Origin: a phage
Reading direction: 5' to 3' (one strand)
DNA: 64,000 nucleotides
Sequence record: PZ386970.1
Below, one piece after another: positions 32,098-36,423 of this stretch; position 1 is the first letter of the stretch; each line of letters starts with the position of its first letter. The translations under genes and the position numbers were made by a program. The notes under the pieces were generated by a model that had not been told where the DNA came from, did no database searches, and worked only from the letters and a program-made list of their open reading frames with translations.

Positions 32098-32338
32098 CTC
32101 GGTCCCATGATTTGGCCATTAATTCAGACATAAATTCTTCAATGCGCGTTTCTTTAGATGGACTTTCACTATTAGAGACCGCAAGTTTGTAATCTGCAAT
32201 AGGACAGAACATATCAAGGTCCATATTAAGGTCGTCTTTGATTTTTTCTTCTGACACATCTTTATCGTATGTGTACAGATAACTATCACATGATTCTGAT
32301 TTAATGTAAATTGCTATACTCATCTCAAATTCCTGCAT
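32087..32338 (-). CDS. hypothetical acidic protein
   Basis: 83 aa ORF. Confidence 0.35.
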   Translation of the reverse strand: MQEFEMSIAIYIKSESCDSYLYTYDKDVSEEKIKDDLNMDLDMFCPIADYKLAVSNSESPSKETRIEEFMSELMAKSWDRDDE

Positions 32339-32667
32339 TCAGTAATAAAACGTTCAACTTCGTTATTCTTGGCTTTTATCTTGTCTTTATGTTCTTGTAA
32401 ACTACTTTTAATAAGATTAATAATGATGGCGGCGGTACCGCCGCCAATGATGCCACCAACAACACTTATGATACTAGATGCTAATAAGATAGCAATAATA
32501 TCAACAAAACCGAAAGAACTCACCTTAGTACTAAAAAACCATACCGACGGTACAAATATAATCCATCCTGTTATCCATTGGCACTTATTGAAAAACTTTT
32601 CAAGCTCAGCTTGAGTTGTTCGTATTACTTCATCGATAGGTTGATATCCATTAATGTATCTATTCAT
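32320..32667 (-). CDS. membrane protein, FIKECR-tail family member
   Basis: 115 aa; two hydrophobic helices; C-terminus NNEVERFITECRNLR. Confidence 0.45.
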   Translation of the reverse strand: MNRYINGYQPIDEVIRTTQAELEKFFNKCQWITGWIIFVPSVWFFSTKVSSFGFVDIIAILLASSIISVVGGIIGGGTAAIIINLIKSSLQEHKDKIKAKNNEVERFITECRNLR

Positions 32668-32668
32668 A

Positions 32669-32974
32669 TTATTTTCCTCGACATTCTTTAATGAAATTTT
32701 CTAGATTGGTAGATTCAATAGCTTTTTTACGAGCTTCTGCATGTTCTTCTTCAGACAATTTACATTTATAATTAACCCAGACATTATGGTCAAAACTAGT
32801 CGTGGCATATAATAACAATGCTCCAACGAATAACAAAAACGGCGATAAGAATACAAAACCAGGAACACCATCCATATCGTAAGCCTTTTGTAATACTGCA
32901 ACAGAAAGGGCTGCGTAAAAAGGTGATGCAAATATTGTTAAAAGACCAATTCGGTTGGTTTCGCCTAATTTCAT
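32669..32974 (-). CDS. membrane protein, FIKECR-tail family member
   Basis: 101 aa; two hydrophobic helices; C-terminus NLENFIKECRGK. Confidence 0.45.
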   Translation of the reverse strand: MKLGETNRIGLLTIFASPFYAALSVAVLQKAYDMDGVPGFVFLSPFLLFVGALLLYATTSFDHNVWVNYKCKLSEEEHAEARKKAIESTNLENFIKECRGK

Positions 32975-33043: not shown

Positions 33044-34000
33044 TTATTTGAAAGGTTTTACCATATGGAAATTTTGTTTGAAACGTTTGACGTAATCATT
33101 TTTGCCGAGCTTATGATACATAGCCACTACTTCATAATAGTTCTCGTATGCGTACTCACGGAACCAACCGGAGGTGATGCTTGTACAGACTTTTTCTAAT
33201 GCCATCATGAAACTGGCTTCAGGGTTAATTTTAAAGTCATTAGGAATCTGAGAACGTTCAAGAGCTAGTACACATGCTTCTTCGTATACACCGGCCAATT
33301 TGACCATTTCTGGTAATGATTCGAACTTCTCGCGTGAGGTCATGACTTCAGAACCATCTTTCATGTAAAATGTATAAGCCGGACGGTCTGTTAGTGCAAT
33401 GGCTTCATGAATAGTATCATGGTCATATGTGTAGATGTCATCTTTAAAGAATGCGCTTTTAGAAGTGTCAAGAACTGGGTGAGCATAGTTCAAGGTTTCT
33501 TTCTGGCGTTTCAGCATAATTTCAGTAAGTTCATCATTCAGTGTAACACCTTTACCGCGAAGATACTGAATATGGTTCATAGTCTTTAAAAAGAATGGAT
33601 TATTTTTCTTGAAACGATGAGACATCTTAATTGCAAGACATATCTCAGGAGTTGCCCAGTAAAACCCGTTCAAACGGTCTTTAGTCAAATTTTTCTTGGC
33701 GTATTTTAAAAGGTCATAAGAAGACGTGAAATCTTCAGGAGTGAGTTCACCGACTAATTCACGGACATTAGTGATTGCCGGAACGATGTATGCTTCAAAA
33801 TGAGTTTCGCGTCCATTATGGAAGCATTTGAAAACTTGGACATCAGGGTTATCTTGGTGAACATATACGCCCATCATTTGATTTTTGAATGCATTCCAAG
33901 AACCTTGGTCCGCAATAAAGTCCCAGTCACTATTTTTGATAGCGCTAGAATCAATAAGACCGTGATAGTGAAGTGCACGAGAACCAATAACTAACATCAT
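33044..34000 (-). CDS. hypothetical protein
   Basis: 318 aa soluble ORF; no confident motif. Confidence 0.45.
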   Translation of the reverse strand: MMLVIGSRALHYHGLIDSSAIKNSDWDFIADQGSWNAFKNQMMGVYVHQDNPDVQVFKCFHNGRETHFEAYIVPAITNVRELVGELTPEDFTSSYDLLKYAKKNLTKDRLNGFYWATPEICLAIKMSHRFKKNNPFFLKTMNHIQYLRGKGVTLNDELTEIMLKRQKETLNYAHPVLDTSKSAFFKDDIYTYDHDTIHEAIALTDRPAYTFYMKDGSEVMTSREKFESLPEMVKLAGVYEEACVLALERSQIPNDFKINPEASFMMALEKVCTSITSGWFREYAYENYYEVVAMYHKLGKNDYVKRFKQNFHMVKPFK

Positions 34001-34025: not shown

Positions 34026-34277
34026 TTAAATTTCACGACATGCGATATTATATTCATCCCAGAGGTCATCGTGTGAAGCCTCTACCAATGGAACGATTGT
34101 ACCGTTTATGTCTTCATTATAAGGGCAAATTGTACAGTGCGCATCTTCGAATCGGATGCCTTTGTGTTCAGATTTTTTATAACGCATATCGAATATCTTT
34201 GCAAACTTTTCACGAGTAATGGTTTTACCAACCACTTTGGTTCCGATACTTTCGTAATAAATCATTGTGGACTCCAT
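34026..34277 (-). CDS. hypothetical protein
   Basis: 83 aa ORF. Confidence 0.4.
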   Translation of the reverse strand: MESTMIYYESIGTKVVGKTITREKFAKIFDMRYKKSEHKGIRFEDAHCTICPYNEDINGTIVPLVEASHDDLWDEYNIACREI

Positions 34278-34293
34278 TTAATTTGATAGGACT

Positions 34294-34323
34294 ACTATAA
34301 CATAGCCCTATCTTGTTGTAAAC
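34294..34323 (-). promoter_or_regulatory. T4-type early promoter inside palindrome
   Basis: Minus strand GTTTAC-18 nt-TATAGT. Confidence 0.45.
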
Positions 34324-34327
34324 TGTT

Positions 34328-34525
34328 TTAGCAAGAATAACTAGATGATACCCAGCCTTGAACAGTAATACTATTGTGGGATAATGAGATCGCGTCCTGG
34401 AGATTCAGACCTGCGTTATCTTCAATCCATAATGTAACTTCTTCGCGTTCTTCTGTTGCAATTTGGAACAGGTTTTCCAGAGCAGCTACTGCCGTACGTA
34501 CAGCACAATCTAATTCACGAGACAT
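34328..34525 (-). CDS. small protein, GWVxSSxxC-tail family member
   Basis: 65 aa; C-terminus QGWVSSSYSC. Confidence 0.45.
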   Translation of the reverse strand: MSRELDCAVRTAVAALENLFQIATEEREEVTLWIEDNAGLNLQDAISLSHNSITVQGWVSSSYSC

Positions 34526-34534
34526 AATATTTCC

Positions 34535-34807
34535 TTAGCAAGTGTGAGAAGATGCAACCCAACCGCCATCTTCAAGGCTCAAGTTGTAGTCGTATTGGTG
34601 AACGTCGGCCCATTCAGGATTACCATGTTTAGTATGATGTTCAAGGTCGGCTTTAAGATAACCTGGTGAATGATAGGTTCCGCCCATACCATATGCCGGA
34701 TACAAATTAAACGTGGTGTTTTGTTTATCAGCAATTTCTTTGGCTGCCTCAATAGCTGCATAGATTTTTGCTACAGCTTCAGCCAGTTCAGTTTGTTCTT
34801 TAGACAT
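34535..34807 (-). CDS. small protein, GWVxSSxxC-tail family member
   Basis: 90 aa; C-terminus GGWVASSHTC. Confidence 0.45.
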   Translation of the reverse strand: MSKEQTELAEAVAKIYAAIEAAKEIADKQNTTFNLYPAYGMGGTYHSPGYLKADLEHHTKHGNPEWADVHQYDYNLSLEDGGWVASSHTC

Positions 34808-34816
34808 AATGATTCC

Positions 34817-35122
34817 TTAGCACAATGCAGAAGACGAAACCCAAGCACCTTCAGTAATAACGTAACCATTACCTTCACGCTTAACATCGCCACCATTATT
34901 TTCAATTTCATCTTTCATCCACTGGGATACGATTTCACCCTTAGGATAATAAGTACGACCGCTACCATAATCACCTACAGAAAATGATACGGCATATTGG
35001 TCTGCGATCTTTGTTGCTTCTTCTTCGATACGTTCAGCTTGATTCAGAAGTTTATAAATTGCATCTGAAGCAGATTTGGCATCATTAAACTCTGGTACTT
35101 TAATTTCAATAATCTTACTCAT
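34817..35122 (-). CDS. small protein, GWVxSSxxC-tail family member
   Basis: 101 aa; C-terminus GAWVSSSALC. Confidence 0.45.
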   Translation of the reverse strand: MSKIIEIKVPEFNDAKSASDAIYKLLNQAERIEEEATKIADQYAVSFSVGDYGSGRTYYPKGEIVSQWMKDEIENNGGDVKREGNGYVITEGAWVSSSALC

Positions 35123-35478
35123 TTTCTACATTCCTTAATAAAGTTTTCGATTGTTTCATTTTCACGTTTAGCTAGGAGTTCATTATAACTAATCATTTGA
35201 GAAGCGTAAACCTTTTTATTTTTCTTGTTATGGTTTATAAAATCGTAGTAAAAATAGACTACAGTACAAAATGATGCGATGGATGCAAAGGCTTGGGTAT
35301 ACCGTAAGTCCTGCCATTGGTCTGTGAATCCACTGGTATTCCCTATAAATCCTAACACAACTCCGTCAATAAGAAATCCAACTAATCCAAAGGCAAATCC
35401 CATGCCAATACTCATAATAAAAATTAGAATGTTCTCACCAAGAGAAGGCCATACGGTTAAGAGTTGAGGCTTTTGCAT
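35119..35478 (-). CDS. membrane protein, FIKECR-tail family member
   Basis: 119 aa; hydrophobic helices; C-terminus ETIENFIKECRK. Confidence 0.45.
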   Translation of the reverse strand: MQKPQLLTVWPSLGENILIFIMSIGMGFAFGLVGFLIDGVVLGFIGNTSGFTDQWQDLRYTQAFASIASFCTVVYFYYDFINHNKKNKKVYASQMISYNELLAKRENETIENFIKECRK

Positions 35479-35882
35479 CTTATTTCCTTAACGAATTCCA
35501 TAGCTTCTTCATATTCATATTTTTTAACAGCCTCGTCATATTGAGCTCTTGCTTTTGCACATTGAATTTTCCATTCGCGTACTCGAGCTCTGTGATGACG
35601 GCCTTGGTACCAATATCCTGCCCAATTAATAGGCATTAATAAAAACGGTACAATAAGTGGTGCGACGAACATTAATGAAAACGCTGCATCAGACGATATA
35701 ACTTTATTGGAATCTAAAACAGCTCCTATAATCATAAAGATTAAAAATGCTAAAGCTAAAATAGGACCAAACAACACTTCATTAGGAATTAATTTACGTT
35801 TGTATTCGTACGCCCAAGGCTTAATTGGCATGTATAGGGTTGGCTTTGACATATTCTCTACATTCCATAATAAATTGCTCAA
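35457..35882 (-). CDS. membrane protein, FIKECR-tail-related (start uncertain)
   Basis: Two transmembrane helices; C-terminal tail EEAMEFVKEIRCK; true start probably an internal Met (MPIKPW...). Confidence 0.4.
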   Translation of the reverse strand: MSNLLWNVENMSKPTLYMPIKPWAYEYKRKLIPNEVLFGPILALAFLIFMIIGAVLDSNKVISSDAAFSLMFVAPLIVPFLLMPINWAGYWYQGRHHRARVREWKIQCAKARAQYDEAVKKYEYEEAMEFVKEIRCKSLNS

Positions 35883-36423
35883 GGATTAAATTGTTAGTGA
35901 AATTAGGACTAACAACCATGGTTTCATAAAGCGCATCAATAGCACTTAAAGCATCAACTCTTTTAAGCAAAGGCTTGCCTTCATACATAGTTTCAGAATC
36001 AACGATTAAAGTGAAGTAGTATTTTTTATTATCGACTAGAACTTCTGTATCGATATAAAACATATTAGACCTCAGAAGTTTATCTCTAAAGCCTACATAA
36101 TCATCTGAACGTTCACTGATATATTCCCATTCGGTGTTTAAACAACAAACAGACCATGTAGGAGCAACGAAATCAGTGAATCTAATATCATGGTCTGCAA
36201 CTAGTTTAGCAATAGCTCCGATATCATGAATCATAATACCTGGGGCTAATAAAGATTTTCTACTATGGCTAGCCGTTTTCTCAGTAGTCTCATAAGAAGA
36301 CGACCAGTACCATTTACGTCCAGTTGCAACATATCGTAATGAATCAACTAAAGACGTAGGTGGATTTACCTTATCTCGGAACTCTTCGAACATTGAGTCA
36401 ATATCATTATTTTGGTTTCGCAT
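35821..36423 (-). CDS. soluble protein with FIMECR tail
   Basis: About 200 aa starting MRNQNNDIDS...; C-terminus LEQFIMECREYVKANPIHAN. Confidence 0.45.
   Translation of the reverse strand: MRNQNNDIDSMFEEFRDKVNPPTSLVDSLRYVATGRKWYWSSSYETTEKTASHSRKSLLAPGIMIHDIGAIAKLVADHDIRFTDFVAPTWSVCCLNTEWEYISERSDDYVGFRDKLLRSNMFYIDTEVLVDNKKYYFTLIVDSETMYEGKPLLKRVDALSAIDALYETMVVSPNFTNNLILEQFIMECREYVKANPIHAN

Follow-up and report, generated by a model that had tools for sequence, protein, structure and literature searches.

Few of the hundreds of small genes without an assigned function in large virulent phages can be grouped by a common functional element. A 64,000-nucleotide stretch of phage DNA (sequence record PZ386970.1; this whole stretch is hereafter called the window) raises a question of this kind: why do three consecutive genes, whose products of 65, 90 and 101 amino acids (aa) differ in most of their length, end in nearly the same residues? 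A first reading, made from the sequence alone, suggested that their common C-terminal tail could be a modification or recognition tag. In this report, we describe the family of proteins that carry the tail, demonstrate that their genes are linked to the gene of one nucleotidyltransferase-fold enzyme and tentatively propose that the tail connects the two.

Three consecutive genes with a common C-terminal tail

The genes and their tail codons, the latter by direct sequence reading, are located in the window as follows.
34817-35122, minus strand: 101-aa tail protein, type A1 (GDYGSGRTYYP ... GAWVSSSALC), equivalent to RB69ORF139c+138c
34535-34807, minus strand: 90-aa tail protein, type A2 (AYGMGGTYH ... 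GGWVASSHTC), equivalent to RB69ORF137c
34328-34525, minus strand: 65-aa tail protein, type B (...QGWVSSSYSC), equivalent to RB69ORF136c
34820-34843, minus strand: tail codons W-V-S-S-S-A-L-C of the 101-aa gene (stop codon at 34817-34819)
34538-34561, minus strand: tail codons W-V-A-S-S-H-T-C of the 90-aa gene
34331-34354, minus strand: tail codons W-V-S-S-S-Y-S-C of the 65-aa gene

The array is thus present as first noticed, with three consecutive genes that have GWVxSSxxC-like endings. Its region is 95-96% identical in nucleotide sequence to that of RB69-type Mosigvirus phages. Comparison with orthologues shows that the open reading frames (ORFs) are coding: the ratio of nonsynonymous to synonymous substitution rates (dN/dS) is 0-0.48, with values of 0-0.14 for close orthologues and 0.14-0.48 for distant ones (101-aa gene, 0-0.29; 90-aa gene, 0.14-0.34; 65-aa gene, 0.02-0.48). 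Moreover, PHROG hidden Markov models were matched over their full length, namely phrog_899 by the 101-aa and 90-aa proteins (E = 1.3e-22 and 8e-19, respectively) and phrog_4882 by the 65-aa protein (E = 7.7e-37). On this comparative evidence, we consider all three tail ORFs to be real protein-coding genes. In the RB69 reference (NC_004928; locus L001, 5821-6127), the 101-aa gene is divided into ORF138c and ORF139c. Because the window and most relatives contain the gene undivided, this split is probably a frameshift or sequencing error.

The bodies of the proteins had been called divergent, and alignments agree. The 90-aa and 101-aa proteins are 29% identical over 76 aa by BLASTP (E = 3e-7), which identifies them, as far as sequence can tell, as clear yet distant paralogues. 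Alignment of the 65-aa protein with the other two is confined to the tail (E = 1e-3; 14 columns by hhalign). In a sequence alignment, W94, S97, S98 and C101 (numbered as in the 101-aa protein) are invariant. No families in Pfam, NCBIfam or PADLOC were matched by the three small proteins; matches of the 101-aa protein to the Pfam families Peptidase_S78_2 and E217_Gp32 were below threshold and were disregarded.

The counts make coincidence an implausible source of these endings. When all six frames of the window are divided into 1672 stop-to-stop segments of at least 20 aa, 45 end in Cys, and only these three end in W.[SA]SS..C. A looser tail pattern matches 1 of 1698 antisense ORFs in 80 related loci (see below), and at this rate about 0.1 matches are expected among 234 window ORFs. 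To judge by these sequence counts, three adjacent matches on the same strand are not due to chance.

Breadth of the tail family

We defined the tail family by Trp at position -8, Ser at -5 and -4, Cys as the last residue and a protein length below approximately 175 aa; all three window proteins have the specified residues. Word-indexed searches and tblastn searches of phages revealed homologues in many Straboviridae, in Aeromonas phages, in one Pseudomonas phage and in contigs of approximately 370 kb. An exhaustive profile search, in which eleven type-A sequences were compared with 1.84 billion cluster representatives, yielded 748 representatives at E<=1e-3 (152 at E<=1e-10); their lengths are 68-175 aa, and every match extends to the last residue. 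Trp occupies -8 in 136 of 145 representatives examined, and these 136 have Ser at -5 (136/136), Ser at -4 (133/136) and a terminal Cys (135/136); because the search profile itself favours the motif, these statistics are descriptive and no proof of selection. The pattern that was first noticed at three C-termini is therefore near-invariant in hundreds of diverged homologues.

The general form of the tail is G-[GA]-W-x-[SAP]-S-S-x(0-3)-C-COOH. In ORFs of related loci, the same tail is found on other bodies, which include the 65-aa type B, longer forms of 140-170 aa and a type C that has an internal DW[LQ]SS[SA]CYGE in addition to a terminal W.[SP]SSC. In hhalign comparisons between types A, B and C, little aligns besides the W..SS segment; these alignments indicate that one tail is kept on bodies that are otherwise unrelated or barely related. 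Each of the paralogue types A1, A2, B and C is itself conserved across phage families.

Tail proteins are acidic (median isoelectric point 4.4), and the tail Cys is the sole Cys in 64 of 181 unique examples. No signal peptides were apparent on direct reading of their N-termini. In an AlphaFold2 (AF2) model of the 101-aa protein, whose predicted local distance difference test score (pLDDT) is 89.3, a long helix (residues 15-43) packs on a small beta-sheet; the last strand, A-W-V-S, pairs with the preceding strand and leads into a short turn and the free Cys. Instead of being peptide-like, as had been considered, the tail proteins are predicted to be folded and cytoplasmic. A sequence search of the Protein Data Bank with the tail proteins and with the enzyme described in the next section gave no meaningful match.

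Reciprocal linkage to a nucleotidyltransferase-fold enzyme

The gene to which the array is linked lies on the same strand.
33044-34000, minus strand: 318-aa enzyme with DUF7277 (N-terminal MenT/ANT-like nucleotidyltransferase core) and DUF7275, equivalent to RB69ORF134c

In the window, the array ends at 34328 and the enzyme gene begins at 34000, that is, less than 3 kb away. The initial lead consisted of four distant loci, in each of which an array is followed by a 300-320-aa homologue of this protein. When the enzyme is taken as the starting point, 74 of 80 IMG/VR loci (enzyme identity 40-96%) carry at least one tail ORF on the same strand. In these 80 loci, the looser tail pattern is found in 222 of 2787 sense ORFs versus the single antisense match mentioned above, and 217 of the 222 end no more than 3 kb upstream of the enzyme start. 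When a small protein is taken as the starting point, the enzyme is found 0.2-2.3 kb downstream in 23 of 24 loci, the sole exception being at the end of a 3.6-kb contig. Arrays comprise 1-6 tail genes per enzyme.

The pairing spans T4-like, Phapecoctavirus-like, Pseudomonas and jumbo phages. It has the same order in a jumbo phage from a different assembly collection and also occurs in Aeromonas phage 25, the Pseudomonas phages PsgM04F, KIL4 and SYP, Phapecoctavirus, Acinetobacter phage Morttis and the jumbo phage SE_PL. Its position varies: in RB69-type phages it lies in the e region, in Aeromonas phage 25 in the nrdD region, and in Phapecoctavirus-like, Pseudomonas and jumbo phages at yet other genome positions. 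Among 185,579 species genomes, the enzyme was detected only on five contigs of metagenome-assembled genomes; since these are phage-like (and 5/5 have upstream tail ORFs), the module is essentially phage-restricted. Clustering of ORFs from 91 loci gave no third component, as only the tail families travel broadly with the enzyme. Thus, the linkage of tail genes and enzyme is tight, holds in both directions and persists in several phage groups and genome positions.

Six loci with the long form of the enzyme (defined below) have no tail ORF within 6 kb upstream (L027, L044, L045, L047, L076 and L079). In L076, a tail ORF (…AWCSSSMEC) is located approximately 5 kb downstream of the enzyme on the opposite strand, and an array can therefore be displaced.

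The sequence-only reading had pointed to modifying enzymes as possible neighbours, and the reciprocally linked nucleotidyltransferase-fold protein downstream answers to that expectation. Its more specific suggestions of thiol modification or C-terminal processing found no such counterpart: a Pfam scan of neighbours and the 91-locus clustering revealed no conserved gene for thiol modification, for a protease or for enzymes of ribosomally synthesized and post-translationally modified peptides (RiPPs).

The enzyme and its long and short forms

The enzyme scores 97.1 bits against DUF7277 (PF23942) and 261.5 bits against DUF7275 (PF23940), for which the gathering cut-off is 27, and its AF2 model has a pLDDT of 88.5. 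G6, S7, D25, D27 and E69 are invariant and fit the pol-beta-type pattern hG[GS]...DxD...E. The protein therefore has a nucleotidyltransferase fold with intact catalytic residues. K125, H128 and R129 are located at the position expected for motif III of AbiEii/MenT; one homologue has a sub-threshold AbiEii match over the K125-R129 stretch, and the window protein falls below the Pfam AbiEii model. The remaining 170 residues, which make up most of DUF7275, are the best-conserved part and gave no convincing structural match. NCBIfam and PADLOC contained no match for the enzyme.

MenT and AbiEii enzymes add nucleotides to tRNA 3' ends (PMC11375011). Control of these nucleotidyltransferases (DUF1814) lies with diverse small partners encoded upstream, and one of the partners, acting via a single helix, triggers phosphotransfer to an active-site Ser/Thr (PMC11375011). 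By analogy with these structural relatives, the enzyme most likely acts on RNA or tRNA 3' ends.

The enzyme family extends beyond the tail family. Its short form (248-263 aa) is found in Streptomyces, Gordonia, Rhodococcus and some Vibrio phages, and keeps the catalytic residues and several DUF7275 residues. Tail ORFs are nearby in 10/10 long-form enzymes examined versus 0/6 short-form enzymes (actinophage and Vibrio), so that, in these 16 enzymes, tail proteins are confined to the long-form clade. R129, R165, E168, Y172, H174, P175, Y212, C272, S274, S277, F280 and R281 are invariant in the long form, and this pattern makes them candidates for a tail-handling surface.

In actinophages, the short-form enzyme is followed by 1-2 small proteins that contain '...YNSWDSSNWDG...' (L111, 5633-6320; L113, 5785-6132; L112, 4454-4747). 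Homology of these proteins to the tail family was rejected despite their W-D-S-S string (hhalign probability 0.2%), although they could be an analogous partner.

Genomic surroundings of the array

Further features of the window, and of related loci, are as follows.
34026-34277, minus strand: 83-aa ORF, RB69ORF135c, phrog_3723, between array and enzyme
34285-34312, minus strand: stable RNA hairpin directly 3' of the 65-aa gene (folding free energy, dG, -16 kcal/mol; z -4.4)
34322-34294, minus strand: promoter-like site TTTACA-17-TATAGT from a promoter scan, overlapping the hairpin
35182-35210, minus strand: promoter-like site TTTACG-17-TATAAT (consensus match only) inside the e.3 homologue, upstream of the array
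32320-32667, 32669-32974, 35119-35478 and 35821-36423, minus strand: ORFs with FIKECR-type tails, mostly predicted membrane proteins
L130/L131, 552-1478 and 6647-7426; L125, 815-1744 and 5646-6389: jumbo-phage RNA-repair neighbourhood
L004, 7536-8210; L115, 11200-12331; L127, 7813-8613; L123, 6585-7325; L124, 5747-6469: Sir2-family genes

In RB69-type phages, the array sits between homologues of e.2 and e.3. These two genes overlap by 4 nucleotides in T4 (NC_000866; locus L129, 3653-4320), so that the block of approximately 3.5 kb containing the nucleotidyltransferase gene, the 83-aa ORF and the tail genes represents accessory DNA inserted at this junction in RB69-type phages. The 83-aa ORF is absent from most related loci and is an optional passenger of the module; its product ends in ...EYNIACREI, with a faint resemblance to the FIKECR tail. 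The hairpin is without a clear U-tract, and the equivalent spot in the related record SA79RD is annotated as a terminator.

The array was initially placed directly upstream of a cluster of genes with FIKECR tails. It does adjoin such genes, but they lie on both sides of it. Their tails ([ED]xF[IVL]xxCR) include ERFITECRNLR, ENFIKECRGK, ENFIKECRK and EQFIMECREYV... and recur in some related T4-like loci only. Because just 10 of 74 tail-positive loci have the FIKECR tail, its co-occurrence with the array reflects local lineage synteny and no general link. The tail codons of the e.3 homologue (ATT AAG GAA TGT AGA AAA TGA) supply the Shine-Dalgarno sequence of the 101-aa gene and an ATGA start/stop overlap with it. 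Two related records carry the label 'sulfurtransferase', which applies to the e.4 homologue and seems spurious.

In jumbo phages, the module is found among genes for T4-type RNA ligase 1 (Rnl1), Pnkp and a metallophosphoesterase. Within 6 kb of the module, Pnkp is present in 10/91 loci and the metallophosphoesterase in 16/91. The RNA-repair neighbours in jumbo phages fit an RNA-end activity of the enzyme. A Sir2-family gene is located 2.5-3.5 kb downstream of the enzyme in Phapecoctavirus-like and Vibrio schizoT4-like phages; Sir2 homologues occur in 9/91 clustered loci, and the Vibrio examples have the short-form enzyme.

A proposed two-part module

Our leading, though still tentative, interpretation is that the tail serves as the interface of the small proteins to the downstream enzyme; any single chemistry for the pair is much less likely than this role. 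The module would consist of two parts, namely 1-6 tail proteins and one MenT/AbiEii/ANT-like nucleotidyltransferase with an extra DUF7275 domain. The tail would dock at or near the active site, with its Trp as an anchor and with two Ser hydroxyls and the thiol and carboxylate of its terminal Cys on offer, and the latter two groups may be able to bind a metal. Since the fold transfers nucleoside monophosphates (and, in MenT, also phosphate) to hydroxyls, of which the tail has two, the tail proteins could be cognate or allosteric regulators or pseudo-substrates, as MenA partners are for MenT, or a tail Ser could accept a nucleotidyl or phosphoryl group. The activity of the enzyme may be tuned or directed by the ancient paralogue types A1, A2, B and C. 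Their conservation across phage families under purifying selection suggests distinct, stable roles rather than an arms-race swarm. The original tag proposal is partly supported, by a near-invariant tail with tight linkage to a nucleotidyltransferase; the roles in modification, processing or signalling that were first suggested for it are conjectural.

Several observations weigh against an interface. No fusions of tail protein and enzyme were seen, and 6/80 long-form loci are without nearby upstream tail genes. In L027, L044, L076 and L079, the enzyme nevertheless keeps all long-form residues, and in L047, where the enzyme ORF was recovered from approximately residue 69 onward, it keeps those that are covered. 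The short-form enzyme clearly works without tail proteins, and the correlation with the long-form clade rests on essentially one phylogenetic split. Also, the array and the enzyme are not translationally coupled in the window, because the 83-aa ORF, the hairpin and a promoter-like site intervene. The AF2 model places W-V-S in the last beta-strand, and part of the motif may therefore be structural. The spacing of 0-3 residues between SS and Cys, and the internal motif copy of type C, are awkward for a single rigid docking mode. Finally, the tail proteins have no homology to MenA or AbiEi antitoxins.

Alternative explanations

A phage protein-modification system is an unlikely but conceivable alternative. 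In such a system, the MenT-like nucleotidyltransferase, with its dedicated extra domain, would recognise and covalently modify a portable eight-residue tag, or the tag would recruit the enzyme via adaptors. Modification would consist of nucleotidylylation or phosphorylation of Ser, or of elimination followed by cyclisation with Cys to give a lanthionine-like ring.

We also regard it as unlikely that the small proteins are independent effectors with host targets. The W-x-S-S...C motif would then be a structural last strand and cap, the terminal Cys would serve in oligomerisation or in an inter-subunit metal or redox site, and synteny with the nucleotidyltransferase would reflect a co-inherited accessory or anti-defence island. 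Such a role would suit the beta-strand in which W94-V95-S96 pair with the preceding strand in the AF2 model, the low isoelectric points (many phage anti-host proteins are acidic), the long N-terminal amphipathic helices, which could mediate oligomerisation, and the two motif copies, hence two Cys, of type C. The six enzyme loci without tail genes point in the same direction. However, the same tail occurs on bodies that have no other detectable homology, and 64 of 181 unique proteins contain a single Cys. Moreover, the linkage survives relocation, different phage groups and enzyme identities of 37-96%, and no other gene co-travels.

If instead the bodies bind different host proteins or RNAs and the common tail recruits the nucleotidyltransferase, the small proteins would be targeting adaptors with an F-box-like logic. 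One tail on variable bodies, 1-6 paralogues per enzyme and distinct types that are each kept across phage families are compatible with this scheme. We consider it improbable, given that dN/dS values of 0-0.14 between close relatives reveal no rapid diversification.

RiPP-like substrates are a quite improbable explanation. Here the nucleotidyltransferase would activate a tail Ser by phosphorylation or nucleotidylylation, DUF7275 would catalyse elimination and the terminal Cys would add to form a lanthionine-type ring or, with decarboxylation, an aminovinylcysteine (AviCys)-like ring. The invariant Ser-Ser is indeed followed by 0-3 residues and a terminal Cys, and Ser-x-x-Cys-COOH is the spacing of the AviCys ring in epidermin-type peptides. 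Tandem small genes adjoin one enzyme, in which the long-form-specific H174 and C272, with C243 in most members, could form a thiol-activating site. Against this, C243 is not invariant, and neither a Pfam scan of ten neighbours nor the 91-locus clustering revealed LanB, LanM, LanKC, LanC, LanD, radical-SAM or YcaO proteins, or a conserved protease or exporter. Folded, variable bodies with a conserved 'core' invert the usual RiPP logic, and no precedent is known for activation of Ser toward elimination by this fold.

It is similarly hard to credit that the tails are mimics of tRNA 3' ends. They would imitate the single-stranded NCCA end and block MenT/AbiEii-type toxins or toxSAS, and the nucleotidyltransferase would repair such ends, so that both genes meet one threat without mutual contact. 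The idea is purely analogical, although fold relatives of the enzyme act on tRNA 3' ends, jumbo-phage copies lie beside Rnl1 and Pnkp, and the proteins are acidic. RNA-repair neighbours are found in only 10-16 of 91 loci, and the long-form-specific residues of the enzyme that track with tail genes are left unexplained.

Last, the sequence-only reading had noted that DNA at the 3' ends is conserved. This is partly so: the last 36 nucleotides are identical between genes at 20-25 positions, and TGC-TAA-GGA is common to two of the three genes, with the stop codon overlapping the Shine-Dalgarno sequence of the next gene. However, 1-3 of the 6 tail codons for identical residues are synonymous variants, which, with dN/dS well below 1, places the constraint on the protein and not on the DNA. 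We therefore reject, as having almost no probability, the idea that a nucleic-acid feature (ribosome-binding site, terminator or repeat) accounts for the conservation or that the ORFs are not genes, despite the Shine-Dalgarno overlap and the hairpin after the third gene, because the tail is kept in hundreds of homologues whose downstream sequences differ.

Implications

A single short C-terminal tag brings together at least three PHROG-level families and hundreds of sequence clusters and ties them to one enzyme family. PHROG 899 and PHROG 4882 (which have no Pfam entry) and DUF7275/DUF7277 have no described function, and a literature search found nothing relevant on them or on the RB69 ORFs by name; a paper on RB69 arabinosylation was set aside because it concerns other genes. 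The pairing thus provides a concrete, testable link between two sets of proteins without an assigned function. A modest but real gain concerns annotation: in RB69-type, Karam-, Slopek-, Teguna-, Phapecocta- and jumbo phages, 'hypothetical' can be replaced by 'tail-tagged partner of DUF7275 nucleotidyltransferase'. Should the enzyme target tRNA 3' ends, like its structural relatives, the module may be part of a phage answer to tRNA-directed immunity. If modification or recruitment is true, the tail and the enzyme would form a new enzyme-tag pair that T4-like, Phapecocta-like, Pseudomonas and jumbo phages have in common, and a modified tail might make the pair a possible tool.

Comparison with known systems

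Several known systems resemble parts of the module. Acr-aca loci likewise have one conserved gene preceded by small acidic genes in varying number; in the tail module, the conserved gene encodes an enzyme and not a helix-turn-helix regulator, and the small genes have a common sequence tag. Lanthipeptide and AviCys arrays are similar in that tandem small genes with a Ser/Cys C-terminal motif are beside an enzyme gene. The module differs from them in having no known RiPP enzyme family and no protease or exporter, and in that its terminal motif is conserved on folded, variable bodies. Tail proteins do not combine the beta-grasp fold and C-terminal Gly-Gly of ubiquitin-like or ThiS-MoaD carriers.

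In the HEPN-MNT type VII, GlnD/PII and GlnE/GS systems, nucleotidyltransferase-fold enzymes nucleotidylylate a partner protein on Tyr. By analogy, the module enzyme might act on a partner hydroxyl, as proposed for the tail Ser. The tail partners do not have a PII fold; HEPN gave no Pfam match, and its Rx4-6H motif is absent from the three window sequences on direct reading. The O-nucleotidylyltransferases ANT(2'') and LnuA differ in that they act on small-molecule antibiotics and have neither partner proteins nor DUF7275.

The closest likeness in organization is to MenA-MenT and AbiEi-AbiEii (DUF1814), in which a nucleotidyltransferase also has a small upstream partner. Unlike these systems, the tail module is found only in phages and has arrays of 1-6 partners with a common C-terminal tail, and its enzyme has the extra, highly conserved DUF7275 region. 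The partners have no homology to MenA1, MenA3 or AbiEi, which sets the module apart from the DUF1814 systems, though it may work like them.

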